A stretch of 19,119 nucleotides of DNA from a virus: UHGV virus genome UHGV-0349885, one strand, 5' to 3'. The notes under the pieces were generated by a model. The model was not told where the DNA came from. It did no database searches and saw nothing but the letters and a program-made list of their open reading frames with translations. The position numbers and the translations under genes are program-made. This document shows, in pieces, positions 786 to 15,348 of this stretch. Numbering within the stretch: the first letter of the stretch is position 1; each line of letters opens with the position of its first letter.

Positions 786-985
786 TTTTTGCGGGTCCTT
801 TCCGGCGATCCGGGCCGTTACGGGGCGGCGACCTCGCGGTTTTTCACTATTTATGAAAATTTTTCAGGGAAAATCGTGTCGGTACTTCTCGAATATAACT
901 TTTTGTTTTTTTTTATATTGCATCCGTAAAGGTCCGACATGAAAGTGTCCGAAAATGCCTTTTTCTGGCGTTTTCATGTCGGGCC
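786..985 (+). other. Prophage cos site (lambda-type): cosQ-like GGGTCCTTTCCGG at 793-805, cosN GGGCGGCGACCT at 823-834, I2-like CGCGGTTTTTCACTATTTATGA, then cosB with inverted repeat CCGACATGAAA (934-944) / TTTCATGTCGG (972-982)
   Basis: Near-identical to the lambda cos junction as recalled from memory (acgggtcctttccgg...ttacg|gggcggcgacctcgcgggttttcgctatttatga); lies immediately upstream of the Nu1-like gene, as in lambda. Confidence 0.85.
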
Positions 986-1010
986 TTGTATTTGATAATG
1001 GGTTGTTTTC

Positions 1011-2513: not shown

Positions 2514-2683
2514 TATGCAATCATTATCTTTCATTGCCGTTTCTTTTTGTGTTTCTTCTTATTCAATAAGTTGCGGTTTCTTCAATTGTGTGCATTGTTC
2601 CTTTTTTTTCGCTTTTTTATCGCCAGTATTCTGGCAAAAGGAACCAGCGCATGGACTAGAAAAATTTGTATTGGAGTGCTTGT

Positions 2684-3916
2684 ATGTCGGTGAAGCCTCT
2701 TACTGCATCAGAGGTAAAAAGCGCCAGGCCACGAGAGAAAGATTACGCTCTGTATGATGGGTTTGGGCTTTTGTTTTATGTGTCAAAAGCCGGTAGTAAA
2801 TCGTGGCGTTTTCGTTATGTACAACCTTTTACGAAGAAGCGGCAAACATACACTATAGGGCGATACCCGGATTTCACACTGGTTGAAGCCAGAGAAGAAC
2901 GCGATAAGCTGCGCAGATTGCTGGCACGGGATATAGATCCGTTATCATACCGGGCAGAAAAACGACTTGAGGCTAAAAGAAAGCACTTACAGACGTTTGG
3001 TGCTATTGCAATTGAATGGTTTAATTTTAAGAAAAAAGGTGATTTGCGGCTGTCGACTTTACAAACAATAGAGGAATTATTGAACAGACATATAATTCCT
3101 GTATTCGGAAATATGTACTTACATGATATGACCGCGCCAGTGGTTATTTCACTGCTTAATCAATTTTCTGATCGTAATGCTGTACTGGCTAAAATGCTGT
3201 CAAAAATTAATGAAATAATGAATTACTGTGTTAACTCTGGAGTGATTAAAAACAATCCGCTATCAACAATAAGAAAGGCATTTGTAATAAAAAAAGATAC
3301 ACCATTAAAAGCATTACCAGTTGAACGGTTATCAGAATTTTTGAACTGGTGGGAGACCACAAGTAATATCTCTATGAGATGCTCTCTTTTGTTCCAGATT
3401 GTCACTATGGTAAGACCATGTGAAGCAAGGGAGGCAAAATGGGAAGAAATTGATTTAGAAAATTGTATCTGGACAATTCCCCCTGAAAGAATGAAGTGTG
3501 GACGTGAACACGTAGTTCCGCTTTCACGGCAAGCCGTGGATATTTTAAGTGAAATGAATAAAATAAAATGTGGTAGCTATATATTTTTTTCTCCAAAGAA
3601 TCCGGGGAAAGCTATATCAAGCGTGTTGCGTCATAAGTGTTTCAGAGAGGGGCCATTTTATGGTGTTGCAACTGCTCACGGATTCCGGGCTATGTGGAGT
3701 ACGTTACTCAATGAAGAAGGGTTTAACCCAGATGTTATTGAGGCAGCATTGGCCCATAAAAGCGGCGATGCTATTCGTGATATTTATAATCGCTCAAAAT
3801 ATTTTGAGCAACGTAAGATCATGATGCAATGGATTGGTGATTTTGTTGATGATGCCAGAAAGGGAATTATCCGCCGTTCTGGTGGTCATCAGGGGCTAAA
3901 AGTAGTGAATATGTGA
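2684..3916 (+). CDS. int: Tyrosine site-specific integrase, P4-type
   Basis: ATG at 2684 with GGAG 8 nt upstream (ORF track begins at an upstream TTG, 2666). N-terminus MSVKPLTASEVKSARPREKDYALYDGFGLLFYVSKAGSKSWRFRY matches the P4-integrase N-terminal arm-binding domain; C-terminal region has HGFRAMW and RDIYNRSKY consistent with catalytic His/Arg/Tyr. Confidence 0.9.
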   Translation: MSVKPLTASEVKSARPREKDYALYDGFGLLFYVSKAGSKSWRFRYVQPFTKKRQTYTIGRYPDFTLVEAREERDKLRRLLARDIDPLSYRAEKRLEAKRKHLQTFGAIAIEWFNFKKKGDLRLSTLQTIEELLNRHIIPVFGNMYLHDMTAPVVISLLNQFSDRNAVLAKMLSKINEIMNYCVNSGVIKNNPLSTIRKAFVIKKDTPLKALPVERLSEFLNWWETTSNISMRCSLLFQIVTMVRPCEAREAKWEEIDLENCIWTIPPERMKCGREHVVPLSRQAVDILSEMNKIKCGSYIFFSPKNPGKAISSVLRHKCFREGPFYGVATAHGFRAMWSTLLNEEGFNPDVIEAALAHKSGDAIRDIYNRSKYFEQRKIMMQWIGDFVDDARKGIIRRSGGHQGLKVVNM

Positions 3917-3922
3917 GGCAAT

Positions 3923-4132
3923 ATGAGCACTAACGGCAATATTCTATTTACCAAAGACGTGATGGCAGAGCTTCGCTACGGTGCAATGAGTGCGTTTTAC
4001 GCTTTCATGAACGATGAAAAAAATAAATTTCCACGCCCCTTTAAGATTGGGCGACGCAACGCATGGCATCGTGATGATGTTGCATCGTGGCTGGAAAGAC
4101 AACGAAAACAAGCTAATGAATATCGTCAATGA
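3923..4132 (+). CDS. alpA: AlpA/Xis-family small DNA-binding protein (putative excisionase / transcriptional regulator)
   Basis: 69 aa, immediately after int, GAGG Shine-Dalgarno; sequence FTKDVMAELRYGAMSAFYAFMNDEKNKFPRPFKIGRRNAWHRDDVASWLE fits the AlpA/Vis/Xis HTH pattern; followed by a terminator. Confidence 0.7.
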   Translation: MSTNGNILFTKDVMAELRYGAMSAFYAFMNDEKNKFPRPFKIGRRNAWHRDDVASWLERQRKQANEYRQ

Positions 4133-4140
4133 TTGATATA

Positions 4141-4164
4141 CCCCGCGCAATGCGGGGTTTTTTG
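4141..4164 (+). terminator. Rho-independent terminator after alpA
   Basis: Hairpin CCCCGC-gcaat-GCGGGG (4141-4157) followed by TTTTTT. Confidence 0.7.
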
Positions 4165-4178
4165 TATATGAGGTAAAA

Positions 4179-4760
4179 ATGATGAATAAAAATATTGCCG
4201 TGACGGGCAAGGGTGACGCACGTCATGTGAAAAAAGTCTGTGATATTCGTGATCTGGTCGTTCTGCGCTTTGATGGCGTGAGCGTTCGCGTGGTGTATCT
4301 GAACGGCGATCCGTGGTTTGTTGCAAAGGATGTCTGCGCTGCGCTGGAACTGACCAATTCGCGTACGGCGTTGCAGATGCTTGATGATGATGAAAAGGGA
4401 GTAAATTTAACTTACACCCCCGGAGGAAATCAGAATATGAGCATTATCTCTGAGTCAGGTTTCTACAAACTAATAGTCCGCAGCCGCAAAGCAACGACGC
4501 CTGGCACATTTGCTCATCGTTTTAGTAACTGGGTATTCAGAAATGTGATACCGGGTATCAGAAAAACGGGGGCTTATGGTATCCCGTGGGGTGCATTACA
4601 GGATTTTTCCCGCCGCAAAGAGCAATATCAGATAAGTGCCAGCGAGAAGGGGAGGGCGCTACAGGCATGTAAGCGCAAAAAACGTGAACTGGAGGAAGAA
4701 GAAAAAAGGCTGATACGTGAATATCAGCCTGAGTTTTACTTTGGTGAGCGTATTCAGTAA
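4179..4760 (+). CDS. BRO-N / KilA-N domain protein (phage antirepressor-like)
   Basis: 193 aa; N-terminal region LRFDGVSVRVVYLNGDPWFVAKDVCAALELTNSRTALQMLDDDEKG ... IRKTGAY matches the conserved BRO-N antirepressor motif; GAGG SD; charged coiled-coil-like C-terminus. Confidence 0.75.
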   Translation: MMNKNIAVTGKGDARHVKKVCDIRDLVVLRFDGVSVRVVYLNGDPWFVAKDVCAALELTNSRTALQMLDDDEKGVNLTYTPGGNQNMSIISESGFYKLIVRSRKATTPGTFAHRFSNWVFRNVIPGIRKTGAYGIPWGALQDFSRRKEQYQISASEKGRALQACKRKKRELEEEEKRLIREYQPEFYFGERIQ

Positions 4761-5040
4761 CCACACGCGGTGCTGATTATACGGTACATCGTGTTAACCG
4801 AGAAGCTACCCACCAGCAAGGCAAAATCTTCTGCTAAAAAATGACATATGACCAGTCGTCCAGAAAGCATGAAATTTTACAAAAATGGAAAATGAAGATT
4901 TTTATTGTGCTAGTGGGTAAAAACAAAAAGCGCCCCGTTGCCGGAGCGCCCTTGCGAACAATTAACCTGCTGCGAAAAAATTGGATCAGTGCAAGGAAAT
5001 TATATCAACTGTGTGAAGAAGCGCCACAATTGCCGGATAA

Positions 5041-5073
5041 CAGGCAAAGAAAAGGCCACCTGTCACGGTGGCC
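5041..5073 (-). terminator. Minus-strand rho-independent terminator
   Basis: Perfect 7-bp stem GGCCACC/GGTGGCC (5054-5060 / 5067-5073) with 6-nt loop; on the minus strand it is followed by TTTTCTTTG; it lies downstream of the minus-strand regulator gene. Confidence 0.5.
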
Positions 5074-5392
5074 CTTCAACACAAATTGCGCGTTATCCCC
5101 AACGCATGAGCATCGCCAACAATGCCATATTTGCGGCTGGTGGGCAAAGCCTGAGCGATCCTGTGATTACAGGAACTACGGCATTGTCTCGGTTAGGTAG
5201 TGCTCAACTTTTTTTCAACTCTACATCGCAAGCACGCCGTAATAAATCGCCCTTATCGTTTGAGCAAAGACTATTTTTCTCAAAGCATGATATTAAGAGA
5301 AAGATTGTGATAATTAAAGCAACCATCATTGGTACATGTTTTTTTAATTTTAACATCTTTTACTCCTATGATTATCGCCATCGTTCTTCATG

Positions 5393-5590
5393 TTATGACG
5401 TGATTAATGATTTCTCGGATTCACTGGCCTTGCGCCGCTGGCGATATTCAACTTCTCGTTTTAATGCCGCAGTAACAAATTGCCCCGTACTTTCGCCAGG
5501 CATTTTTACCGCCTCAACATTGTTCATAACTTCATGCGGAACCCTTGCCGCAACGGTTTGTGATTTTGCGTTTACTGCTTTTGTCGCCAT
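5393..5590 (-). CDS. Small putative DNA-binding regulator (candidate repressor of the element; possibly ribbon-helix-helix-like)
   Basis: 65 aa, ATG at 5590 with GAGGGG SD; divergently oriented from the operator/promoter cluster at 5641-5692. Fold assignment is by eye only. Confidence 0.5.
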   Translation of the reverse strand: MATKAVNAKSQTVAARVPHEVMNNVEAVKMPGESTGQFVTAALKREVEYRQRRKASESEKSLITS

Positions 5591-5640
5591 GTGGTGTACC
5601 CCTCATAAAAAACAAATGCAGTATGCAGGAAAAAAAATAA

Positions 5641-5692
5641 GTGTTCAACACTTGACGTGTTTAACACCTGGGTTTAAATTGGTGTTCAACAC
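5641..5692. promoter_or_regulatory. Divergent promoter/operator region: three palindromic operators GTGTTCAACAC (5641-5651), GTGTTTAACAC (5657-5667), GTGTTCAACAC (5682-5692) overlapping a rightward sigma70-like promoter (-35 TTGACG 5652-5657, 17-bp spacer, -10 TAAATT 5675-5680)
   Basis: Three copies of an 11-bp perfect palindrome GTGTT-N-AACAC seen directly; they sit between the minus-strand regulator gene and the plus-strand early operon. Confidence 0.6.
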
Positions 5693-5789
5693 CTTGTTGG
5701 CGCAAGGTGCAGAAACGACGAAACCCGGCAGTGCGCTAACACTAACCGGGCTTCTAACCACCAACGATAGCGAAAGTATCGAGGCAGCT

Positions 5790-5993
5790 ATGAGAAATCA
5801 TACCACACACCCGCAAGGGCGGGACTCGCACGACCTGAATAAATACATCTGGCGTTTTATCGCCCTGAGCACGGCACAACCGCGCGTGATTACCATCGAG
5901 GCCACCAGCGAACAGGAAGCGCGTCAGCAATCTCCGGCTGGCTGCGTGATGGTATTCGCTGCCCGTATTCGCCAGGGGTCACATCATGCGTAA
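5790..5993 (+). CDS. Small early protein, Icd-like (P4 host cell-division inhibitor family) by motif
   Basis: ATG 5790 with GAGG SD 5 nt upstream; 67 aa; motif YIWRFIALS...RVITIEATSEQEARQQ...VFAARIRQG recalled as characteristic of Icd-like proteins of P4-type elements. Family assignment from memory only. Confidence 0.5.
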   Translation: MRNHTTHPQGRDSHDLNKYIWRFIALSTAQPRVITIEATSEQEARQQSPAGCVMVFAARIRQGSHHA

Positions 5994-6447
5994 AAACCGC
6001 TTGCAAAAAATTATCACGGGGCTGTATGCTTCCCCCGTCGCCCACATGGCGACCGGGTTTGACAGCCTGAATACATCTGGCGGACAGCCGCCCACATCCG
6101 ATAAGCGGTTTTTTTGTGTCCGTAAACCTACCCATACCCGCATTATGGCGGGGCGTAACGGGGGAGCCTTTGTGCTCGCTGGTTTCCAGATGACCAGTCT
6201 GTCAACCCTGTTACGTCTCGCCACCATGTTTGACAGCGTAGTAGCGAGACTCCTTAAAATTCATCTGGGAGCCTTTCACATGGCTGTATCCGCACGCCCT
6301 TATTTTGTCTGGCGCTTTATGCAGTGCCTGACAGACAGCATTGCAATATTCACCGTTACCGCTGCCACTGAGCGCGAAGCACGTGCACAGCTGCCGCACG
6401 CACATCTGATTTTTGTCGCCCGTATTCGTCAGGGGGTAGGCTTATGA
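5986..6447 (+). CDS. Icd/Ash-like paralog (153 aa) carrying the same C-terminal motif
   Basis: Start overlaps the previous stop; C-terminus YFVWRFMQCLTDSIAIFTVTAATEREARAQLPHAHLIFVARIRQG is a clear paralog of the 5790-5993 product. Confidence 0.5.
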   Translation: MRKNRLQKIITGLYASPVAHMATGFDSLNTSGGQPPTSDKRFFCVRKPTHTRIMAGRNGGAFVLAGFQMTSLSTLLRLATMFDSVVARLLKIHLGAFHMAVSARPYFVWRFMQCLTDSIAIFTVTAATEREARAQLPHAHLIFVARIRQGVGL

Positions 6448-6677
6448 GTCAGGAAATCACACTACAACAGGCAGCAGAACGCGCCCACCAAATCGAAGTT
6501 ATTTGCGCACTGGCAGAGGATTACCCTGGCATGATGACCGACAGCGAATCAGGGGCAATCATCGGCTTACTTAAACGCCTTAGCGGTGAGGTCTGCGTAT
6601 TCCTGAGCGATGAACAGGAAAGAAGAACGCTTATTTCTAACGAAAAAAAATGCGGAGGGGTACACCATGTGCAATAA
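6444..6677 (+). CDS. Hypothetical small protein (77 aa), translationally coupled in early operon
   Basis: ATG overlaps the preceding stop (ATGA); GGGGG SD upstream; no recognisable family. Confidence 0.5.
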   Translation: MSQEITLQQAAERAHQIEVICALAEDYPGMMTDSESGAIIGLLKRLSGEVCVFLSDEQERRTLISNEKKCGGVHHVQ

Positions 6678-6888
6678 CATCCGTCCGGACGCAGCAGCCG
6701 CCGCGCTCACTACGCTGATGCACGCGCTTATCGATATTGAATGCACTGCAGAGCTTGCGCAGGGAGAAGAACAGAAAGACCGGACACAGTTCGCCCTGGA
6801 ATGTATCCGATACATCGCAACGCGGTCGCTGAATGAAGCTAAAAATATTCTTGTTGCTGATTGTGAAAATGGGGGGGGTTATGCGTGA
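6667..6888 (+). CDS. Hypothetical small protein (73 aa from ATG 6667; ORF track offers an upstream start at 6610)
   Basis: Strong SD GGAGGGG 7 nt upstream of ATG 6667; stop overlaps the next start in the 8-mer ATGCGTGA. Confidence 0.45.
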   Translation: MCNNIRPDAAAAALTTLMHALIDIECTAELAQGEEQKDRTQFALECIRYIATRSLNEAKNILVADCENGGGYA

Positions 6889-7114
6889 TGATCGTTTTAA
6901 TTCCCTGAAACAGGAATTTTCCGGCGTTCCTGATGATGCGGCTGATGCGCTTTCGTCAATGCCAGAACTTATTAGAGCGGCTTTTTTCTTACTTTCCACG
7001 AGAGAATATAAATCAACGGGGCTTGATGTACTGAATATCGCCGCCGATTATGCGGAATATGTGGCAGAGGCGCGTTATAGAAGAAAATTTCCTGAGGATG
7101 TAAGCCATGCGTGA
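6881..7114 (+). CDS. Hypothetical small protein (77 aa, MRDDRFNSLKQEF...)
   Basis: ATG 6881 inside the overlap 8-mer ATGCGTGA; acidic and helical; no recognisable family. Confidence 0.45.
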   Translation: MRDDRFNSLKQEFSGVPDDAADALSSMPELIRAAFFLLSTREYKSTGLDVLNIAADYAEYVAEARYRRKFPEDVSHA

Positions 7115-7268
7115 TATTTACCACGAAACAATAGACCGCGCATTTCTTGCACTTTCTCACAGTGAAAACATGCTGGAAATATTGCGCATATGGCTTGAAA
7201 CACTTGGCGACAATGAACGCGACAAACAAAAAATCAAGAATTGCCACGGCATTAATAACGCTTCTTGA
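7107..7268 (+). CDS. Hypothetical small protein (53 aa, MRDIYHETIDRAFLALSHSENMLEILRIWLETLGDNERDKQKIKNCHGINNAS)
   Basis: ATG 7107 again inside an ATGCGTGA overlap with the preceding stop (7112-7114); translated by hand; competes with ORF-track 7147-7341, which needs a TTG start. Confidence 0.3.
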   Translation: MRDIYHETIDRAFLALSHSENMLEILRIWLETLGDNERDKQKIKNCHGINNAS

Positions 7269-7346
7269 GCCTGTAATAATGGAACTGCAAGAAATAGATC
7301 TATTGCACGACAGATATAAAGAACAGCACACCGGAGAATAAAAATA

Positions 7347-7646
7347 ATGAAACTTAAATATTCTGGCTTAACTGCCAGTGGCAACACTCACCCTAAATTT
7401 ACGCGCGGCGATATTTACCGCGACCAGTACGGCGGCACGGTAATGATTAAGGGCGTGGAAGAACGGCGCGTAACCTACCGCCGTGAAGGTTACGAATATG
7501 ATTGCGTGATGCCTGTTTATCAGTTCCGGCGTGATTTTTCTCTGGTACAGACCGCGCCGCATAACGTGTCCACCAGCAACGCCAGGGCACGGGCAAACAT
7601 CCAGAAGCTGAAAACCATGATTAACGGATTCAGGGGTAAAAAATGA
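7347..7646 (+). CDS. Hypothetical protein (99 aa) immediately upstream of and coupled to the primase gene
   Basis: ATG 7347 with GGAG upstream; stop overlaps the primase ATG (ATGA); no recognisable family. Confidence 0.5.
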   Translation: MKLKYSGLTASGNTHPKFTRGDIYRDQYGGTVMIKGVEERRVTYRREGYEYDCVMPVYQFRRDFSLVQTAPHNVSTSNARARANIQKLKTMINGFRGKK

Positions 7647-9397
7647 AACTGGCACCGAACGTAAAACAGCAGTCACGCGGCATAAAACACAAAGAAACAG
7701 AAGTCATTATTTTTGCGGGTAGTGATGCCTGGTCACACGCAAAACAATGGCAGGAACATGACGCGCGTATGGCCGGAGATAATGAGCCTCCTGTGTGGCT
7801 TGGGGAGCAGCAGTTATCCGAACTGGATAAGCTGCAAATTGTGCCGGAAGGCAGAAAATCCGTGCGCATATTCAGGGCCGGATATCTTGCGCCAGTAATG
7901 ATAAAGGCGATTGGTCAGAAGCTGGCGGCGGCAGGCGTACAGGATGCAAATTTTTACCCTGATGGTATGCACGGTCAGAAGGTGGAGAACTGGCGCGAAT
8001 ATCTGGCCCGTGAGCGCCAGAATCTTTCTGATGGTCTGGTCATTGAGCTTCCGGTAAAGCAAAAGGCGCAACTTTCGCAGATGGCGGACAGTGAGCGCGC
8101 GCAGCTGCTTGCCGATCGCTTTGATGGCGTTTGCGTACATCCTGAAAGTGAAATCGTTCACGTATGGCGCGGCGGGGTATGGTGTCCGGTCAGCACAATG
8201 GAACTTAGCCGCGAAATGGTGGCGATCTATTCAGAGCACAGGGCCACTTTCAGCAAGCGCGTAATCAATAACGCCGTGGAAGCGTTAAAAGTTATTGCCG
8301 AACCAATGGGCGAGCCGTCCGGCGATTTGTTGCCGTTCGCCAATGGTGCGCTTGACCTGAAAACGGGGGAATTTTCCCCGCACACGCCGGAGAACTGGAT
8401 CACCACGCACAACGGCATTGAGTACACGCCACCAGCACCAGGGGAGAACATCCGCGATAACGCGCCAAACTTTCATAAATGGCTTGAGCACGCAGCCGGA
8501 AAAGACCCGCGCAAGATGATGCGTATATGTGCCGCGCTGTACATGATTATGGCGAACCGGTACGACTGGCAGATGTTTATTGAGGCCACCGGAGACGGCG
8601 GGAGCGGTAAAAGTACATTCACACACATAGCCAGCCTTCTGGCAGGGAAACAGAACACGGTAAGCGCTGAAATGACATCGCTTGATGATGCTGGTGGACG
8701 TGCGCAGGTTGTCGGGAGTCGTCTTATCGTCCTGGCTGACCAGCCGAAATATACAGGCGAAGGAACGGGCATCAAGAAAATCACGGGCGGTGACCCCGTG
8801 GAAATTAACCCGAAATACGAAAAGCGTTTCACGGCGGTAATCAGGGCGGTGGTGCTGGCGACCAACAATAACCCGATGATATTCACCGAACGGGCCGGAG
8901 GTGTGGCACGTCGTCGCGTGATTTTCCGTTTCGACAATATCGTCAGTGAGGCCGAAAAAGACAGGGAGCTACCGGAAAAGATCGCGGCTGAAATCCCTGT
9001 CATTATCCGCCGATTGCTGGCGAACTTTACCGACCCTGAGAAGGCACGGGCTTTACTACTGGAACAGCGTGACGGTGATGAAGCTCTGGCAATAAAGCAA
9101 CAGACGGATCCGGTTATTGAGTTTTGCCAGTTCCTGAATTTTCTGGAGGAAGCGCGCGGCCTGATGATGGGGGGCGGTGGCGATTCAGTGAAGTACACGA
9201 CCAGGAACAGCCTTTACCGCGTCTATCTGGCGTTTATGGCATACGCAGGCAGGAGCAAACCGCTAAACGTAAATGACTTTGGCAAGGCTATGAAGCCAGC
9301 CGCGAAAGTTTACGGACATGAATATATTACGCGGAAAGTTAAGGGAGTAACGCAGACTAACGCAATAACAACAGACGATTGCGACGCGTTTTTATAA
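7643..9397 (+). CDS. Replication initiator: DNA primase / SF3-type NTPase (P4-alpha / D5 family C-terminal domain)
   Basis: 584 aa; Walker A EATGDGGSGKSTF, then RLIVLADQPKY and KKITGGDPVEINPKYEKRFTAVIRAVVLATNNNPMIF typical of the phage/plasmid primase P4-family C-terminal domain; the iteron origin lies directly downstream. Confidence 0.85.
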   Translation: MKLAPNVKQQSRGIKHKETEVIIFAGSDAWSHAKQWQEHDARMAGDNEPPVWLGEQQLSELDKLQIVPEGRKSVRIFRAGYLAPVMIKAIGQKLAAAGVQDANFYPDGMHGQKVENWREYLARERQNLSDGLVIELPVKQKAQLSQMADSERAQLLADRFDGVCVHPESEIVHVWRGGVWCPVSTMELSREMVAIYSEHRATFSKRVINNAVEALKVIAEPMGEPSGDLLPFANGALDLKTGEFSPHTPENWITTHNGIEYTPPAPGENIRDNAPNFHKWLEHAAGKDPRKMMRICAALYMIMANRYDWQMFIEATGDGGSGKSTFTHIASLLAGKQNTVSAEMTSLDDAGGRAQVVGSRLIVLADQPKYTGEGTGIKKITGGDPVEINPKYEKRFTAVIRAVVLATNNNPMIFTERAGGVARRRVIFRFDNIVSEAEKDRELPEKIAAEIPVIIRRLLANFTDPEKARALLLEQRDGDEALAIKQQTDPVIEFCQFLNFLEEARGLMMGGGGDSVKYTTRNSLYRVYLAFMAYAGRSKPLNVNDFGKAMKPAAKVYGHEYITRKVKGVTQTNAITTDDCDAFL

Positions 9398-9410
9398 TTT
9401 TTTGCAATGG

Positions 9411-9640
9411 CTGTCTACCCTGTCTACCTGAGTAAAGAAAAATACATTTAATTCAGTATATTAACTTAGGTAGACAGCCTTTTTTCACTGTCTACCTACT
9501 ATCTACCCTCTCTACCTGATTTTACCTGAATCAGACAGGGAGGTAGATACGGGGTAGATAGTGGATAAAAGCACTCTACCCCGCTGAAAGCCGCGCCATT
9601 ACTGGCATGAGAGCCAGTAAGGTAGATAAGGTAGACAAGG
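9411..9640. repeat. Iteron-type replication origin: about 11 copies of TCTACC / GGTAGA (6 forward, 5 reverse) in AT-rich context
   Basis: Forward copies at 9414, 9423, 9491, 9502, 9511, 9575; reverse copies at 9469, 9542, 9553, 9621, 9630; immediately 3' of the primase gene, the usual ori position in PICI/SaPI-like elements. Confidence 0.75.
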
Positions 9641-9685
9641 GGAGGCACAACTCAAAACTTTTTAAACGAGGGGGTAAAAATAAAA

Positions 9686-9943
9686 ATGCGCACATCAGGA
9701 AAACTTAATAATCAGAAGAAGCAGCATAACCGCGCCATTGACCTTACAGAGCACTGGCTGAGAGTGGCGATAAAAATCATCGACCGCAACACGGGGGAAG
9801 GATACGCGAAAGCACATCCCGACCTGATAAGCGCATTCATGACCACGGCGGCGGCAAACTTTGCCACGCTGACAGAACGGGAGATTGCCGAAGCGGAACA
9901 GGTAACAACCATCAACGTTAAAACCGGAGAGGTGGAATCATGA
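9686..9943 (+). CDS. Hypothetical protein (85 aa)
   Basis: ATG 9686 with GAGGGGG SD; stop overlaps the SSB-like start; no recognisable family. Confidence 0.5.
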   Translation: MRTSGKLNNQKKQHNRAIDLTEHWLRVAIKIIDRNTGEGYAKAHPDLISAFMTTAAANFATLTEREIAEAEQVTTINVKTGEVES

Positions 9944-10362
9944 CAGCACAGATAGCAGCTTACGGGCGGCTGGTGGACGACCCGCAGGTAAAACAGACCA
10001 GCAAGGGCACACCAATGACGCTGGCACGTATGGCGGTATCGTTGCCATGTAGTCAGGCGCAGGATGGGCAGGCTACGTTATGGCTATCGGTGATGGCATT
10101 TGGCAGACAGGCCGAAGCACTGGAAAGGCACCGCAAGGGTGAACTCCTGAGCGTGGCGGGTAACATGCAGATCAGCCAGTGGACTGGGCAGAACGGAGAA
10201 ACGCGGCAGGGCTGGCAGGTTATCGCAGACAGTGTAATCAGTGCGCGAACGGCGCGACTGGGCGGCAAAAAAGGTCAACTGGGCCAGGCTACTGACGCGC
10301 TGAACAGGGCAAAACAACAGGCGGGGAATGATGATCCGTACGGGGATAACATACCGTTTTAA
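9940..10362 (+). CDS. ssb: Single-stranded DNA-binding protein (SSB-like)
   Basis: 140 aa; OB-fold-like N-terminal region aligns by eye with E. coli SSB (LVDDPQVKQTSKGTPMTLARMAVS / LWLSVMAFGRQAEALERHRKGELLSVAGNMQISQWT); C-terminal acidic tail ends DDPYGDNIPF, like the SSB DDDIPF tail. Confidence 0.8.
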   Translation: MTAQIAAYGRLVDDPQVKQTSKGTPMTLARMAVSLPCSQAQDGQATLWLSVMAFGRQAEALERHRKGELLSVAGNMQISQWTGQNGETRQGWQVIADSVISARTARLGGKKGQLGQATDALNRAKQQAGNDDPYGDNIPF

Positions 10363-10377
10363 GCGACGAGTGACAGA

Positions 10378-10400
10378 AGCCGGAGCAATCCGGCTTTTTT
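10378..10400 (+). terminator. Rho-independent terminator after ssb
   Basis: Stem GCCGGA/TCCGGC (10379-10384 / 10389-10394), loop GCAA, T-run 10395-10400. Confidence 0.65.
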
Positions 10401-10448
10401 ACGGGTCCTCCTGGCGGGGTGGGCCTGAACACGGGGCGGGAGGCGCGG
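10401..10448 (+). other. Degenerate cos-like remnant (cosQ-like ACGGGTCCTCCTGG ... ACGGGGCGGGAGGCGCGG) lacking an intact cosN 12-mer
   Basis: Aligns with the cosQ/cosN region of the three intact cos sites, but GGGCGGCGACCT is replaced by GGGCGGGAGGCG; preceded by the same terminator-then-cosQ arrangement as at 12818-12857. Confidence 0.4.
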
Positions 10449-10580
10449 AAAAAAGCGCATTTTTGTGATTTTATCGTCATCATCATCATGAGCGTAATTT
10501 ATTGTTTTTAATTGTTTTGATGCAAAAAAGATGATGGTTGTGGTTAATTTTTGTTCGACATCTTTGCAGGCAGATAAAAA

Positions 10581-10616
10581 AGCCCGATAAGGTCAGAGGT
10601 GGCTTATCGGGCTTTT
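10581..10616. terminator. Strong hairpin with flanking A- and T-runs (possible bidirectional terminator)
   Basis: Perfect 11-bp stem AGCCCGATAAG/CTTATCGGGCT (10581-10591 / 10603-10613), preceded by AAAAAA and followed by TTTT. Confidence 0.5.
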
Positions 10617-10692
10617 GCATATGAGGCTTTTTGGTGCACTGACACACATGATCGGGATAATCATTTCATAATTTGCAACACAACTCAATATC

Positions 10693-10742
10693 ATTGCACA
10701 AAATGCAATACTGATTATAATCAGAGCTGGATGAACATCCAG
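10693..10742 (+). promoter_or_regulatory. Candidate promoter of the element capsid operon with three palindromes: ATTGCA-N5-TGCAAT (10693-10709), TGATTATAATCA (10713-10724), CTGGATG-AA-CATCCAG (10727-10742); -35 TTGCAC 10694-10699, -10 TATAAT 10716-10721
   Basis: Consensus -10 with 16-bp spacer seen directly; palindromes overlap the -35, -10 and +1 regions; AAGAGGAA SD and ATG 10778 follow. Confidence 0.4.
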
Positions 10743-10777
10743 TTATGATTTTTTAAGTCAAAGAGGAATTTCTTACT

Positions 10778-10984
10778 ATGGCTGAAGAGAAAAAAGGCGG
10801 TGTTTCGGTGTACATAAGCCCCGACATCGTAAAGGCGCTCAAGGAACGCCACCAGCAGAACGTAAAAGCAGGCATTGCGGCAGGACTTGATCCGCTGGCG
10901 ATGGTTGAGCCGTCAACAGGCTGGCAGGTACGCGCCTATTTACGCGCGGCGCTGGGTATGAATCAGGTTCACGGGGGTGAATAA
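10778..10984 (+). CDS. Hypothetical small protein (68 aa), first gene of the element capsid module
   Basis: ATG 10778 with AAGAGGAA SD; stop overlaps the capsid-gene start (TAATG); no recognisable family. Confidence 0.5.
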   Translation: MAEEKKGGVSVYISPDIVKALKERHQQNVKAGIAAGLDPLAMVEPSTGWQVRAYLRAALGMNQVHGGE

Positions 10985-12039
10985 TGACAGGCAAAGCAAC
11001 GGCACTTAACACTAACCAGCTTTTCATGTACCTGAATCGCGGGGATATTGCGGATTTTAAATTCAACCCTCTGTTTACTACGCTGTTTTTCCCGAACGTG
11101 GCGACATTCAGCACGCAAAACATCATGCTGGATACCCTGGACATTGAAGAAGTCACCATGTCGGCGTTTTGTTCGCCTATGGTTGGCAGCCAGGTACAGC
11201 GCGATAAAGGGTACGAAACCAGCACAATTAAACCTGGCTACATGAAGCCAAAGCACGAAATCGATCCAACAAAAACCATCATGCGCATGGCTGGAGAAGA
11301 TCCGGCACAGCTTAACGACCCTACCTACCGCCGTATGCGCCTGATTACTGGCAACATGCGCCGCCAGGTAAACGCCATTAAAGCGCGCGTGGAATGGCTG
11401 GCGGTGAATGCGATAACGACCGGAAAAAACATCATTGAGGGCGAAGGCATAGAACGCTATGAAATCGACTGGAAAATACCGGAAAACTGCATCATAGAGC
11501 AGGCCAAGGGTAAAAAATGGTCCGAGCAGGATAAAGACATGCACGACCCAATCTATGACATCGAGCTTTATGCTGATCAGGCTGGTTGCCCCGCAAACGT
11601 CATGATTATGGGCGCTGAGGTATGGCGCACGTTACGCAGCTTTAAAAAATTCCGTGAGCTGTACGATCTTTCCCGTGGTTCAGAGTCCGCCGCCGAACTG
11701 GCCTGTAAAAACCTGGGCGAAGTGGTGAGCTTTAAAGGCTATCTGGGCGATATTGCCCTTATCGTCTATTCCGGCAAATACACTGACAGCGACGGCACAG
11801 AAAAATATTTCCTTGAGCCTGATTTGCTGGTTCTGGGCAACACCAACAATAAAGGGCTGGTGGCCTATGGTGCGATTATGGATCAGGACGCAGTAAGAAC
11901 GGGCGCAACGCAAAACATGTTTTACCCGAAAAACTGGATTGGGGACGGCGATCCGGCGATTGAGTACGTGCAGACGCACAGCGCACCGCAGCCGGTTCCG
12001 GCAGATATTCGTAAATTTGTTACCGTCAAAATTGGTTAA
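10984..12039 (+). CDS. Major capsid protein homolog (lambda gpE-like), element-encoded and diverged from the prophage copy
   Basis: 351 aa; matches lambda gpE (from memory) at FKFNPLFTTLFF (lambda FKFDPLFLRLFF), PGYMKPKHEIDP (PGYVKPKHEVNP) and C-terminal YPKNW..GDPA...SAP; N-terminus differs from the prophage gpE start at 19064. Confidence 0.85.
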   Translation: MTGKATALNTNQLFMYLNRGDIADFKFNPLFTTLFFPNVATFSTQNIMLDTLDIEEVTMSAFCSPMVGSQVQRDKGYETSTIKPGYMKPKHEIDPTKTIMRMAGEDPAQLNDPTYRRMRLITGNMRRQVNAIKARVEWLAVNAITTGKNIIEGEGIERYEIDWKIPENCIIEQAKGKKWSEQDKDMHDPIYDIELYADQAGCPANVMIMGAEVWRTLRSFKKFRELYDLSRGSESAAELACKNLGEVVSFKGYLGDIALIVYSGKYTDSDGTEKYFLEPDLLVLGNTNNKGLVAYGAIMDQDAVRTGATQNMFYPKNWIGDGDPAIEYVQTHSAPQPVPADIRKFVTVKIG

Positions 12040-12050
12040 CGGGGGATTCT

Positions 12051-12386
12051 ATGGACACTCCATACATTGAGTTATTTGCAGGCAGTCAGCAGGTCGCCAC
12101 GACGCTGGTACATTTTGCCGCTGATGCTGGCGTTATTCAGGAATTTACCCCGCTGATGCTGGCGGACAATGGCGAGTTTAAGCCGTGGGATGGTAAGGAA
12201 TCTGGCAAGGCTGTTTATCTGACCTCGTACCCTGTGGACACGTCAAAGCAGAAATCAGCACAGTGTTACAAGACGGGGATATTCAATATTGCCGCCGTTA
12301 ACTGGCCTGAGAGCGTCGACACCGATGCGAAAAAATGCGCCGCCTTTGCGGGTTCTGGCGTATCCGTTCAGCCGCTGGCCCGATAA
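12051..12386 (+). CDS. Head decoration protein homolog (lambda gpD-like), element-encoded
   Basis: 111 aa; shares TPLML..WDG..YKTGxF..WPES..KK.AAFAGS with lambda gpD and with the prophage gpD at 18659-19006. Confidence 0.75.
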   Translation: MDTPYIELFAGSQQVATTLVHFAADAGVIQEFTPLMLADNGEFKPWDGKESGKAVYLTSYPVDTSKQKSAQCYKTGIFNIAAVNWPESVDTDAKKCAAFAGSGVSVQPLAR

Positions 12387-12398
12387 GCAGGGGGAACG

Positions 12399-12812
12399 AT
12401 GGCAACGAATGAAAGCATCATGACGCTACCGCTGGCGAGTAAATTTAAAGCCGAAGCGCGGGCAATGGCTGACAGAGGTTTATCAACCTATGAGGCCGTA
12501 TATCAACTAAACAAACTGGAAGAGCAGGACAAGCCGCGCGCTGATGCGATTATGGCGCTTGATGAATCTGGCGACTATCAGCCGCTGTTACGTGCAATGG
12601 CAAACGTGCCTTGTATCGATGTTGGTACGGCTAAAAGCATCCTTAGCATGACCATAGAGCAGGAACGTCCGAAGGTTGCGCCGGAACTTACTGCAGCCTT
12701 TGAAAACTTTATGGACATGCACAGCCCGCAAGCCGTATCAGCTGGCATGGCATACGATGGCAGAAACCAGGGCGATGACGGCGACATCGATCGCATACTG
12801 AAAACCATCTGA
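12399..12812 (+). CDS. Scaffold-like protein (Nu3 / gpC C-terminal-domain homolog), element-encoded; candidate capsid-size-redirecting scaffold
   Basis: 137 aa; C-terminus TAAFENFMDMHSPQAVSAGMAYDGRNQGDDGD parallels the prophage gpC-Nu3 C-terminus TALFEHFMANHSPAAVRGGVSQTSADGDAD; middle region resembles one of the internal repeats of the prophage protein. Confidence 0.6.
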   Translation: MATNESIMTLPLASKFKAEARAMADRGLSTYEAVYQLNKLEEQDKPRADAIMALDESGDYQPLLRAMANVPCIDVGTAKSILSMTIEQERPKVAPELTAAFENFMDMHSPQAVSAGMAYDGRNQGDDGDIDRILKTI

Positions 12813-12817
12813 GACAA

Positions 12818-12842
12818 GGCCGGAGAAATCCGGCTTTTTTTT
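12818..12842 (+). terminator. Rho-independent terminator after the element capsid module
   Basis: Stem GCCGGA/TCCGGC (12819-12824 / 12829-12834), loop GAAA, eight-T run 12835-12842. Confidence 0.65.
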
Positions 12843-12966
12843 ATGGGTCCTTTCCGGCATATGGACCCGTTACGGGGCGGCGACCTCGCGGGTTTTCGCT
12901 ATTTATGACGTTTTTCCGTGAAGGTGACACCACCACCACTTGATTAATATTTAACCATGCGGTTAA
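12843..12966 (+). other. Element cos site A (forward): cosQ-like GGGTCCTTTCCGG 12845-12857, cosN GGGCGGCGACCT 12875-12886, I2-like CGCGGGTTTTCGCTATTTATGA, divergent cosB with TTAACC-atgc-GGTTAA
   Basis: About 75-bp core near-identical to the prophage cos and to lambda cos; flanking cosB differs from the prophage cosB; lies directly upstream of the Nu1-like gene at 12976. Confidence 0.85.
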
Positions 12967-12975
12967 GGTAACATT

Positions 12976-13416
12976 ATGATTGATAAAGCTTGTTTTGTAA
13001 GTCAGCAGGAAATAGCTGAACATTTCAAGGTTAACAGAACCACTATTCGCGCATGGACCAAACAGGGGATGCCGTATCTTAATGCGGATCGCGGAAAGTC
13101 TGGCGGTTATCACATCGGGCATACATTGCTTTGGTCTTCAGGTAAAAGCCGTCTTGAGGCCATCAGATATCACGTAGAAACCAGTGCGCTGGAAAAAATT
13201 ATGTTTGCCAGGCTGCTTTCATCTGAGCGTGACGAGTACTCCAGTGAAGAAACAGAACATCGATTTGATGAAGGTTTGCAGATTTACGGCTATTCACCGG
13301 AAGATGTGAGCAAGGCACGAAATAAAATGGCTGGCTTTCTGGCTGGGTGGCGTCATGCCGTAAGCGTTCGCCGTGCCAGCATGGAACAATCAGTCGTTAC
13401 AGAACAGCAAAGTTAA
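12976..13416 (+). CDS. Terminase-small-subunit-like protein (Nu1 N-terminal wHTH homolog with unrelated C-terminus); candidate packaging-redirection factor
   Basis: 146 aa; N-terminus VSQQEIAEHFKVNRTTIRAWTKQGMPYLNADRGKSGG aligns with prophage Nu1 [34 protein letters not shown]; positioned just 3' of cos-A, as Nu1 is relative to cos. Confidence 0.7.
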   Translation: MIDKACFVSQQEIAEHFKVNRTTIRAWTKQGMPYLNADRGKSGGYHIGHTLLWSSGKSRLEAIRYHVETSALEKIMFARLLSSERDEYSSEETEHRFDEGLQIYGYSPEDVSKARNKMAGFLAGWRHAVSVRRASMEQSVVTEQQS

Positions 13417-13445
13417 AAATCACTTTCTGTTACGCCATCAAATAC

Positions 13446-13597
13446 GCAATACAACAACCACGTATTTTTTTAAAACTATTTGATTCAATTAGCATTTTTT
13501 TATTTTTAGCATCAAAAAAACACTATCAGGTTGTTGTATTGCTCTTTATTTTTACTTAGTTATCAAATGGATATGACAAACAATTAAACAACAACCT
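13446..13597. repeat. Perfect 14-bp inverted repeat GCAATACAACAACC (13446-13459) / GGTTGTTGTATTGC (13529-13542) around a 69-bp AT-rich spacer, plus a third ACAACAACC copy (13589-13597); candidate cosB R-elements of cos-B
   Basis: Repeats read directly from the sequence; they occupy the cosB side of the inverted cos-B in an R3 / AT-rich / R2 / R1-like layout. Confidence 0.5.
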
Positions 13598-13610
13598 CCC
13601 TCTAAAAAAG

Positions 13611-13680
13611 CTCATAAATAGCGAAAAACCGCGAGGTCGCCGCCCCGTAACGGGCCATAATTCCAGGAAGGACCCGACGA
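13611..13680 (-). other. Element cos site B (inverted orientation): cosN reverse-complement AGGTCGCCGCCC at 13634-13645, I2-like 13611-13633, cosQ-like GGAAGGACCC 13666-13675
   Basis: Reverse complement matches the cosQ-cosN-I2 core of cos-A and the prophage cos almost base for base. Confidence 0.8.
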
Positions 13681-13709
13681 CACCAGACTATCAGAGCGAT
13701 GGGGGCACA

Positions 13710-13991
13710 ATGACAGAAGCCGAACTACTGGGATTAATCCGCCGCGTTACCGGAATCAGCCAGCAGCATGACGAACAGGCCACACAGCCGGACAGCGTGA
13801 CAGCCGAAAATTACGCGCGTGTTGTTGCTGAGGTGATGCGCCGTGATGGTATCCAGCTTAATGATATGGATATGCGCAACATACGGATCCGCGTTCTTGA
13901 AATGCTGGCCTACAATCGCCGCGTGGCACTGTATCGTGAAACGGAGAAAATTACGTACCACTGGAAGAAGCCGGAGCGGTTACGGCGTTAA
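13710..13991 (+). CDS. Hypothetical protein (93 aa)
   Basis: ATG 13710; no recognisable family; followed immediately by the GTGAC repeat array. Confidence 0.45.
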   Translation: MTEAELLGLIRRVTGISQQHDEQATQPDSVTAENYARVVAEVMRRDGIQLNDMDMRNIRIRVLEMLAYNRRVALYRETEKITYHWKKPERLRR

Positions 13992-13997
13992 CTTGTG

Positions 13998-14041
13998 GTG
14001 ACATACCGTGACGGGAGTGACAACCAGTGACACACAGTGAC
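13998..14041. repeat. Array of five GTGAC(A) direct repeats at 9-10 bp spacing (starts 13998, 14008, 14017, 14027, 14037)
   Basis: Seen directly; helical phasing suggests same-face binding of one protein; the reverse complement TGTCACT resembles the lambda Int arm-type consensus (AGTCACTAT, from memory). Confidence 0.5.
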
Positions 14042-14391
14042 AAAAAAAGACGGTATTTAAATAGGGTGGGTGTTTAATACCCTAGGGGGATCGGAATCCC
14101 TACACCCCATTGCTTATGAGACCGCATTCCCCGTCAAATTTTTACACCCGCGAAATTAAAAAAATGCGTCACGCTGGTGGGTGTGATGCTGATATGGGGA
14201 TTTCCATAACCGAGATTAAGCAAAGAGCAAACTTGCCCCCTGTAGCCAAACATAGTAACCATCTAAGCCCCTTTTTTATCTTAATTTAGCTGATTTTTCC
14301 GTGTTTATACGGACTAGAATTTGTACCAAACGCAAAAGCGATGTCTTCTTTATTCCTTTAAATTCAATTTATTATCTTGCTTGTTTGCTTT

Positions 14392-14402
14392 CATATCTGG
14401 AC
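14392..14402 (+). repeat. attR core: right copy of 11-bp direct repeat CATATCTGGAC
   Basis: Identical to 2503-2513; terminase homology resumes exactly here (HIWTAYSPFTTWVQIV). Confidence 0.75.
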
Positions 14403-15348
14403 GGCGTACAGTCCGTTCACCACCTGGGTACAGATTGTCTATGACTGGCTGGATGCACTGAAAGATCCCAACGGCCTGAAAACCTTTGTGAACACCACGC
14501 TGGGCGAGACCTGGGAAGAGGCTGTGGGCGAAAAAATCGATCACCAGGTACTGATGGATAAGGTTGTGCGTTACACGGCGGCGGTGCCTGCCCGGGTGGT
14601 TTATCTGACGGCGGGCATTGACTCGCAGCGAAACCGTTTTGAGATGTATGTCTGGGGATGGGCTCCGGGAGAGGAAGCCTTTCTGGTGGATAAAATCATC
14701 ATTATGGGGCGTCCCGATGAGGAAGAGACGCTGTTACGTGTGGATGCGGCGATCAACAAAAAATACCGCCATGCAGACGGAACCGAAATGACTATTTCCC
14801 GTGTCTGCTGGGACATCGGGGGGATCGATGGCGAAATCGTTTATCAGAGGTCAAAAAAACACGGTGTTTTCCGGGTGCTGCCGGTAAAAGGCGCATCTGT
14901 CTATGGCAAGCCGGTGATCACCATGCCAAAAACCCGCAATCAGCGGGGCGTGTATCTGTGTGAAGTGGGGACGGACACCGCAAAAGAAATTCTCTATGCC
15001 CGTATGAAAGCCGATCCCACGCCTGTGGATGAAGCCACGTCGTATGCCATCCGTTTTCCTGATGATCCGGAGATTTTTTCGCAGACAGAGGCGCAGCAAC
15101 TGGTCGCGGAAGAGCTTGTGGAGAAGTGGGAAAAAGGAAAGATGCGTCTGCTGTGGGATAACAAAAAGCGGCGTAACGAAGCGCTGGACTGCCTGGTGTA
15201 TGCCTACGCGGCATTACGTGTGTCCGTGCAACGCTGGCAGCTTGATCTGGCTGTACTGGCAAAATCCCGGGAAGAAGAGACGACCCGGCCAACCCTGAAA
15301 GAACTGGCAGCGAAGCTGTCCGGAGGAGTGAATGGTTACAGTCGCTGA
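14392..15348 (+). CDS. A: Terminase large subunit (lambda gpA-like), C-terminal 315 codons downstream of the insertion; the ORF track extends it to an in-frame TTG at 14377 inside element DNA
   Basis: Colinear with lambda gpA C-terminal half (FHIWTAYSPFTTWVQIV, FVNTTLGETWE, YLTAGIDSQ, RVCWDIGGID, SKKHGVFRVLPVKGASVYGKP, EVGTDTAKE, KRRNEALDCLVYAYAALR); the N part plus this part total 642 codons, against lambda gpA 641 aa. Confidence 0.85.
   Translation, partial: HIWTAYSPFTTWVQIVYDWLDALKDPNGLKTFVNTTLGETWEEAVGEKIDHQVLMDKVVRYTAAVPARVVYLTAGIDSQRNRFEMYVWGWAPGEEAFLVDKIIIMGRPDEEETLLRVDAAINKKYRHADGTEMTISRVCWDIGGIDGEIVYQRSKKHGVFRVLPVKGASVYGKPVITMPKTRNQRGVYLCEVGTDTAKEILYARMKADPTPVDEATSYAIRFPDDPEIFSQTEAQQLVAEELVEKWEKGKMRLLWDNKKRRNEALDCLVYAYAALRVSVQRWQLDLAVLAKSREEETTRPTLKELAAKLSGGVNGYSR

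Follow-up and report, generated by a model that had tools for sequence, protein, structure and literature searches.

In Escherichia coli, the packaging of cos-PICIs is currently modelled on one terminase class (that of lambda, 80 and 21) acting together with Rpp. Cos sites in PICIs, pairs of such sites in one island, and PICIs embedded in their helpers are already known from the literature. EcCICFT073 carries two functional lambda-type cos sites (PMC6092414, PMC6739421), and deletion of its cos2 raises its transfer (PMC6092414). Rpp-dependent PICI cos sites share only cosQ-cosN with phages (PMC6739421, PMC9026076). The class of helper-embedded PICIs has been described (PMC10111431), and over 258 bp the HE-PICI 11capE matches the cos region of 50icd, its helper, at 90% identity (PMC10111431). 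As for the site itself, natural variation in cosN falls in bp 7-12, cosQ, the left half of cosN and the flanking CG being conserved, and lambda-like termination needs cosQ and cosN, does not need cosB, and crosses specificities (PMC4669245). On the cosB side, R3 lies at bp 50-65 in lambda and at bp 48-60 in N15, with R2 oppositely oriented (PMC4669245, PMC9026076).

Which phages spread the cargo of a PICI, virulence and defence genes included, depends on its helper range. Here we describe a PICI in which a further cos site, hereafter S1, follows ssb. Our literature search found no description of a cos site of a second terminase class in these islands, nor of a link between DUF1441 and PICIs; searches for the S1 core 12-mers returned only unrelated G-rich sequences, and searches for cos3 or multiple cos sites returned nothing relevant.

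The island and its surroundings

The window, by which we mean the whole stretch of 19,119 nucleotides that was analysed, is the late region of a phage-21/lambda-like prophage, with lysis genes, the phage's own cos, Nu1 (the prophage TerS, PF07471) and gpA (Table 1). Its gpA (terL) is interrupted by an 11.9-kb island, prophage homology running over 765-2513 and then again from 14388. The split of gpA at about 2513/14388 with a 16-bp overlap is that of a helper-embedded PICI, and the island is co-oriented with the late operon of the prophage. From the left, it encodes int, HTH, Bro-N, icd-like genes with a C4 antisense RNA, DUF4222, primase and ssb; there follow a 415-bp gap, which contains the S1 module, a 68-aa ORF, a lambda-E-like capsid protein, a D-like decoration protein and a 137-aa ORF; and the right end consists of a cos site on the plus strand, the 146-aa rpp, a cos site on the minus strand and a 93-aa ORF. 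The presence of int, an alpA-like HTH, primase, capsid and decoration homologues, rpp and cos, in a unidirectional arrangement and within the size range of 10-20 kb, places the island among EcCICFT073-like Gram-negative PICIs, and its right half is nearly identical to EcCICFT073, cos1 included.

Two observations concern the left part of the island. In the icd-like region (6024-6073 and 6141-6228) Rfam recognises a C4 antisense RNA (72.6 bits) together with an a1/b1 target element (46.8 bits), a combination that resembles P1/P7/P4-type immunity loci. The equivalent of the ORF at 6668-7114 is annotated as frameshifted in strain AREA_492 (RefSeq), and relatives (L003) have two separate small ORFs in this stretch.

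Table 1. Features of the window bearing on the cos sites of the island. Slashes mark the borders of the core 12-mer.
Feature	Position	Strand	Evidence or remark
Resident helper prophage's own cos: cosQ 793-799, cosN 823-834, 21-type cosB	793-1010	+	upstream of Nu1
att cores, 16-bp identity block TTTC(C)ATATCTGGAC at both junctions	about 2498-2513 and 14388-14403		
Host island, helper-embedded PICI in gpA of phage-21-type prophage	2514-14403	+	split gpA, att overlap
Intrinsic terminator of the island replication operon, after ssb, GCCGGAGCAATCCGGC plus T-run	10379-10400	+	fold -15.8 kcal/mol, z -3.7
cosQ GGGTCCT of second-class cos site S1	10403-10409	+	exact 7-mer
cosN-like core ACG/GGGCGGGAGGCG/CG	10431-10447	+	alignment to phage cos; left half and flanking CG conserved
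Predicted top-strand nick; predicted 12-nt 5' overhang 10434-10445, both by analogy with lambda	between 10433 and 10434		
cosB-equivalent of the DUF1441-terminase class	10448-10565	+	107/119 to Stx2_112808, 101/117 to VT1-Sakai
CGTCATCATCATCATG box (CATCATC)	10475-10490		bp 42-57 from predicted end of S1
Inverted GATGATG box	10528-10543		bp 95-110
GTTCGACATCTTT	10553-10565		
Strong bidirectional hairpin at junction of S1 module and capsid-operon leader	10576-10617	both	fold -25.6 and -20.8 kcal/mol on the two strands
Lambda-type cos1: hairpin 12819-12842, cosQ 12845-12851, cosN 12875-12886, Rpp-type cosB (GGTGACACCACCACCAC)	12819-12975	+	identical to EcCICFT073 cos1 over 120 nt
rpp (redirecting phage packaging protein), 146 aa	12976-13416	+	E = 5.7e-31 to RppC, PDB 6HLK
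Inverted lambda-type cos2: cosQ 13675-13669, cosN 13645-13634, own cosB-like side with GGTTGTTGT boxes	13446-13675	-	resembles phages only over cosQ-cosN

A cos site of another class after ssb

The original prediction read the DNA behind ssb as a hairpin, a cosQ and a disrupted, degenerate cosN containing ACGGGGCGG, and the hairpin, an exact cosQ and ACGGGGCGG (10431-10439) are indeed all present there. The terminator has a GCCGG/CCGGC stem with extensions and a T6 run that stops 2 nt short of cosQ, and the same ssb-hairpin-cosQ junction was found in 43 IMG/VR contigs. A spacer of 21 nt leads from cosQ to ACG, in keeping with the spacing of about 20 bp in lambda-like cos sites, and the GGGCGG left half and the CG dinucleotides flanking the nick sites are present as well. 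The right half departs from the lambda pattern: ACGGGGCGG is followed by GAGGCGCGGAAAAAAGCG where lambda and 21 carry CGACCTCGCGGGTTTTCGC, the 12-mer GGGCGGGAGGCG differs from lambda GGGCGGCGACCT at 5 of the 6 right-half positions, known variants differing at only 2-3 positions in bp 7-12, and is thus no close match to it, and CGCGG follows the left half-site after 10 nt in the window copy and after 12 in lambda.

BLAST searches against phage genomes gave a different picture of this core. Positions 10396-10565 (170 bp) are 88-91% identical to unannotated DNA of VT1-Sakai and Stx2-converting phages (90-94% by segment from cosQ), and 74-78% identical to mEp460, mEp213 and mEp043. The matched phage DNA always lies between Rz and terS, which is the canonical position of cos; for the mEp phages the match falls at the end of the record, directly in front of terS, the GenBank records of mEp460 and mEp213 being linearised at the terS ATG and not at cos. 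From cosQ to the core, 45 of 48 positions are identical to Stx2_112808, and identity continues over the following 117 bp (107/119), for which cos1 has no counterpart. The break in the mEp460_4F5 assembly is near the core, 5 nt away from the predicted nick and not at it, and is only suggestive of a physical terminus.

The cores of these sites form a graded series, from lambda/21 (ACG/GGGCGGCGACCT/CGCGG) through mEp213 (ACG/GGGCGGCGCGCT/CGCGG) and mEp460 (ACG/GGGCGGGAGCGG/CGCGG) to Stx2_112808 (ACG/GGGCGGGCGG CGCGG) and the window (ACG/GGGCGGGAGG CGCGG). In all 46 phage S1 copies a conserved left half is followed by a short, variable right half (GCGG, GCGGG, GTCGG or ACGG), and the right half varies in both sequence and length among phages and islands alike. 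Since this graded phage series fits the natural variability of cosN bp 7-12, the 12-mer that had been taken for disrupted is the native core of another cos class, ACG/GGGCGG/GAGG(CG)/CGCGG, to which the 46 phage copies conform.

This class goes with a terminase of its own. The TerS proteins of VT1-Sakai, mEp460, mEp213 and 606R10 belong to DUF1441 (PF07278) and not to Nu1; a comparison of Nu1 with DUF1441 gave no detectable similarity, and the Sakai-type TerL is 23% identical to 21-type gpA. In six enterobacterial genera an S1-type cos lies about 150 bp upstream of DUF1441 terS and terL, with a common signature: GGGTCCTCC, a GGNGGGGTGG spacer, ACG/GGGCGG, a variable right half, CGCGG, and a GTCATCATCATCATG box at a fixed distance. 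The window copy carries every element of this signature, with the inverted GATGATG box about 50 bp beyond. Between and after the two boxes its cosB-equivalent consists of an AT-rich spacer and the distal GTTCGACATCTTT, and both boxes are conserved in phages. Their layout resembles R3-I1-R2, and the boxes may be regarded as putative TerS sites. A contig scan with the pattern GGGTCCTCCYGGNGGGGTGG, which is short and GC-rich, placed 54 of 60 matches in unrelated high-GC genomes and left 6 usable enterobacterial loci.

We regard the homology of S1 to phage cos sites and its assignment to this class as essentially certain. Judged by its sequence, the segment 10379-10565 is the terminator of the ssb operon followed by a complete and sequence-intact cos, with cosQ, cosN core and cosB, of a class other than that of cos1 and cos2. 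The class is the one used by lambdoid phages with a DUF1441 TerS and a distantly gpA-like TerL, namely VT1-Sakai, several Stx2 phages and, more remotely, mEp460 and mEp213.

The right boundary of the module is sharp. BLAST coverage splits at about 10565/10576, the junction with the capsid-operon leader lies at 10565/10566, and the leader (10566-10777) is common to islands without S1. An Rfam search of the gap between ssb and the capsid genes found nothing. Two small ORFs on the minus strand over the module (10289-10489 and 10486-10647) have no Pfam match and were treated as spurious. The motif GGCGGGAGGCGCGGAAAAAAGCGCA is faintly like the 19-nt end of P2/P4, GGCGAGGCGGGGAAAGCAC; this lead was set aside for S1 once BLAST had given 90% collinear homology to Sakai-type phage cos DNA.

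A hairpin with a T-run ending 2 nt before cosQ precedes every forward cos, in phages and islands alike (760-792, 10379-10402 and 12819-12844 in the window; L004, L006 and L010-L013 elsewhere). These hairpins are GC-rich in islands and AT-rich in phages, and we know of no role for the conserved juxtaposition of hairpin and cosQ.

Distribution among islands and origin of the window copy

Two scans of IMG/VR yielded four recurrent island architectures. Class A, to which the window belongs, reads ssb-[S1]-capsid module-[lambda cos1]-(rpp or Nu1-like gene)-[lambda cos2, inverted]-hyp93, and class B differs in that an mEp460-type site, M1, takes the place of S1. Lambda-type cos sites are absent altogether from class C (ssb-[S2]-protease/capsid fusion-[S1]-hyp93), and class D reads ssb-[M2]-[M3]-DUF1441 gene-hyp93. 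In EcCICFT073 the S1 slot is filled by perC, and there is no third cos site. Islands of classes C and D likewise sit inside a helper, where they interrupt Sakai-type terL at about residues 330-337, and the island site M2 copies the own cos of the DUF1441-class helper over about 190 nt. Their make-up and embedding therefore indicate that there are islands packageable only via the S1-type cos class and living inside phages of that class. These islands provide the strongest indirect argument that such sites are working cos sites. The association with DUF1441 is thus seen in phages and in sister islands embedded in such terL genes, and the window island itself has no DUF1441 gene.

The window copy is composite. 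Its upstream part (ssb 3' end, hairpin, cosQ and spacer) is identical at 79 of 80 positions to the S2 context of a class C island (L122), and from the core onward it follows the S1 of sister islands, which places the crossover inside the cosN core. This suggests that the S1 module reached its present position by recombination between PICI modules, giving a hybrid S2/S1 site. Homologous recombination between tandem cos sites would produce such a hybrid, and so would a terminase that initiates at one cos and terminates at the other, followed by joining of the ends.

Several further features of these islands deserve mention. The capsid module is flanked by two cos sites in the same direction in all island classes (S1...cos1, S2...S1, M2...M3), spaced by about 2.4-2.5 kb in the window (10403-12886), in L010 (1490-4027) and in L122 (2921-5458), and by about 0.6 kb in L012. 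One class C island with S2 and S1 (L087, IMG/VR 2526164595_000015; sites at 2091, 10158 and 12697) sits in terL of a DUF1441-class prophage whose own cos is of the M2 type; embedded islands therefore do not always carry the cosB flavour of their resident helper. Islands with an mEp460-type cos encode a DUF1441 protein directly after it (L011, 4266-4751; L012, 4900-5385; class D contigs), 48-65% identical to phage TerS, which might act as a TerS of the satellite or as a counterpart of Rpp for the DUF1441 terminase class.

Is S1 a working packaging site?

We think it probable that S1 is a complete cos of the DUF1441-terminase class that can be used when a phage of this class is the helper. The TerS of such a phage would bind the CATCATC and GATGATG boxes in the island cosB, its TerL would nick S1 at ACG/GGGCGG, and island concatemers would be packaged rightward from 10434 into helper capsids. 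Because the cosB is of the phage's own type, Rpp should be dispensable at S1. If the helper is the resident 21-type phage, packaging of the island would instead go through cos1 and Rpp, and S1 would be silent or at most an unwanted point of cosQ-dependent termination. Cleavage at S1, the nick positions and the assignment of the boxes to TerS are predictions from comparison with phage sites, and present-day use of S1 for packaging is plausible and somewhat more likely than not.

The main alternative is that S1 is a cos by descent only: a non-functional remnant, brought in when a replication module of the class C kind (ssb-S2...S1) recombined with an EcCICFT073-like capsid/cos1/rpp module, and now decaying neutrally. 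We consider this possible, if doubtful. It would account for the hybrid S2/S1 structure and for the junction with the capsid leader at exactly 10565/10566. Consistent with it, the window copy lacks the distal block TTTCTTTACAAAAAA, which does not vary among phages and is retained by class C islands. A BLAST search found no second S1-like copy in the source chromosome, so no cognate helper is resident there, and EcCICFT073 transfers well without S1 (PMC6092414). Two further points speak against the first reading: the island encodes no DUF1441 protein, and the left half-site is 10 nt and not 12 from CGCGG. Against passive decay, the window copy agrees with every invariant column of 28 distinct phage alleles from cosQ to 10565 (about 165 bp), and the occurrence of M1 in the same slot of other islands looks like cassette exchange.

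The state of cosQ bears on both readings. In a scan anchored inside cosB, which left cosQ and the core free to vary, cosQ was intact in 46/46 phage S1 copies, in 16/16 islands with S1 as terminal cos and in 15 of 20 class A copies. The five lesions (GGGGCCT twice, GGGTTCT twice, AGGTACT once; 3 of 12 distinct alleles) thus occur in the layout of the window, versus 0/62 elsewhere (Fisher p = 0.0006 by copies, 0.011 by distinct alleles). One of the cosQ mutants, the tqsA-integrated lineage L003, occurs in many ExPEC and APEC genomes (hits H17-H26), a success that speaks for a remnant. On the other hand, most class A copies keep cosQ, and the lesions are concentrated in it and not evenly spread (2-3 events in 7 nt versus about 10 in about 185 nt, the numbers being small). 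The lesions therefore suggest that selection on the termination subsite is relaxed, or even negative, in this extra position. A possible mechanistic reason is that a 21-class terminase initiating at cos1 might terminate at S1, with 2.44 kb still to go to the following cos1, and would leave ends mismatched at 5 of 12 positions.

Extending the proposal that S1 is usable by DUF1441-class helpers, enterobacterial cos-PICIs may keep a portfolio of cosB flavours over two unrelated terminase classes (Nu1/gpA and DUF1441/Sakai-TerL), reshuffled at cos cores by recombination or two-site terminase cutting, with the recurrent knock-out of cosQ at the extra site being adaptive, as it would keep a lambda-class terminase that began at cos1 from ending too early at S1 and leaving mismatched ends. 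We offer this wider reading tentatively and with considerable reservation. Since such a portfolio would span both terminase classes, a single 12-kb island could be mobilised by helpers of either.

Relation to cos1 and cos2

The original prediction drew a parallel between S1 and the arrangement before cos1 (its cos-A). The two are related, and their hairpins are close paralogues, identical at 21 of 22 positions (10379-10400 versus 12819-12840; the cos1 hairpin folds at -14.3 kcal/mol, z -2.8). The cos parts are not close: identity is 34/51 (67%), over cosQ-cosN only, and downstream there is no similarity. A hairpin-free local alignment of 10401-10448 with cos1 scored 18, a value reached by 540 of 5000 shuffles and no better than chance, the outcome that was to count against the parallel. 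As this generic alignment was not significant, we used a motif-with-spacing test in its place. The window contains four instances of GGGTCCT-N17-24-ACGGGGCGG (793+, 10403+, 12845+ and 13675-) against 0.00 expected from 200 dinucleotide shuffles, which bears out a module of the terminator-cosQ-cosN type after ssb and leaves the case against the parallel half made. Because the hairpin-free alignment is at chance level, the likeness of S1 and cos1 comes down to cos subsites of one family and a terminator in common, and not to a recent duplication of the cos itself.

The idea that the module is an internal duplication of the cos-A module, with a cosN that then degenerated and was perhaps kept as a cosQ-only terminator for a lambda/21-type terminase, thus becomes very improbable. 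The near-identical hairpins and the exact cosQ and ACGGGGCGG agree with it, and a 21-type terminase could in principle terminate at S1, as lambda termination does without cosB and is not restricted by specificity (PMC4669245). Past the hairpin, however, S1 is much closer to DNA of phages of the other class (45/48 and 107/119) than to cos1, which with the S2/S1 hybrid structure already contradicts the duplication part; the similarity to phages extends 117 bp beyond the core, where cos-A has none, and the same supposedly degenerate core occurs in the phages themselves. Termination at S1 after a start at cos1 would, with its mismatched ends, presumably harm the island. Nor does a cosQ-only element fit, as the cosB-like 117 bp are the best conserved part and cosQ is the subsite that relatives sometimes lose. 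From the proposed relic of module duplication only the word relic retains some weak backing, in those cosQ lesions.

Finally, we judge it highly unlikely that the AT-rich, repeat-bearing segment 10450-10570 is no packaging site at all, being instead a replication origin or a regulatory region (terminator plus promoter/operator) of the capsid operon: its CATCAT/GATGAT and TTGTTTTTAATTGTTTT repeats, its AT-rich context between two operons, the genuine terminator in front and the location of PICI origins downstream of pri (PMC10111431) would suit this, but the segment is collinear and 90% identical with phage Rz-terS DNA, the lambdoid place of cos and not of ori, the leader shared with S1-less islands begins only at about 10576, a promoter scan of 10400-10570 found nothing, and the primase-proximal gap at 9398-9685 is a likelier position for ori.

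The other two island sites are of the lambda type, and their similarity to phages is confined to cosQ-cosN. Cos1 has the features of an Rpp-dependent site (cosQ at 12845 and cosN identical to those of lambda, the PICI-specific R3, ..GGTGACACCACCACCAC.., at bp 48-65, and rpp next to it), features that S1 lacks, having another core, another cosB and the capsid operon downstream. The cosB-like side of cos2 consists of GGTTGTTGT/ACAACAACC inverted boxes, and the same slot holds a lambda-like cosB in L013 and a 21-like one in L017; cos2 too therefore looks like a swappable specificity cassette.

Implications

If S1 works, islands of the EcCICFT073 family can also ride a second class of phages, Shiga-toxin-converting phages among them. 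The islands that carry only S1-type cos sites, some of them in terL of such phages, represent an unstudied branch that bypasses Rpp. The comparison also provides a sequence definition for the cos of DUF1441-terminase phages, which is now unannotated DNA in phage records, and it offers a possible reason why extra cos sites can be costly.

Comparison with known systems

The island shares with EcCICFT073 the order of primase, ssb, capsid, decoration, cos1, rpp, inverted cos2 and the 93-aa gene, and S1, like the cos sites of that element, is a PICI-borne cos with a terminator hairpin in front. The cost proposed here for an extra S1 echoes the higher transfer of EcCICFT073 after deletion of cos2 (PMC6092414). 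The two differ in that cos1 and cos2 of EcCICFT073 share only cosQ-cosN with lambda-type phages, cos1 being Rpp-dependent, whereas S1 copies a phage cos of the DUF1441 class through cosB.

In this respect S1 is closer to SaPIbov5-type cos SaPIs and to 11capE, satellites with a full phage-type cos including the TerS-binding side, which an unmodified helper terminase should recognise. Unlike in those systems, S1 does not derive from the embedding prophage, which is of the 21-type (Nu1/gpA), but from an unrelated terminase class, and the island that bears it also has an Rpp-dependent system directed at the resident class. The insertion itself conforms to described helper-embedded PICIs, being located in, and co-oriented with, the helper late gene A, for which Terminase_1:245/246 sites are listed (PMC10111431); the cos repertoire was not analysed in that work, whose text, when searched, mentions cos three times and neither cosQ nor cosN, and does not describe multi-class cos content.

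With the lambda-like cos sites (lambda, 21, phi80, N15 and Gifsy-1), S1 has in common a cosQ about 21 bp before the core, ACG/GGGCGG, the CG flank and, in phages, the position between Rz and terS. Its box at bp 42-57 lies near the position that R3 has in those sites, with a second, inverted box beyond. It differs from them in a right half changed at five of six positions, in CGCGG following after 10-11 nt and not 12, in the spacer signature of its class (GGGTCCTCC..GGGGTGG) and in a cognate TerS of the DUF1441 family in place of Nu1, and the termini of the S1 class are those predicted from sequence.
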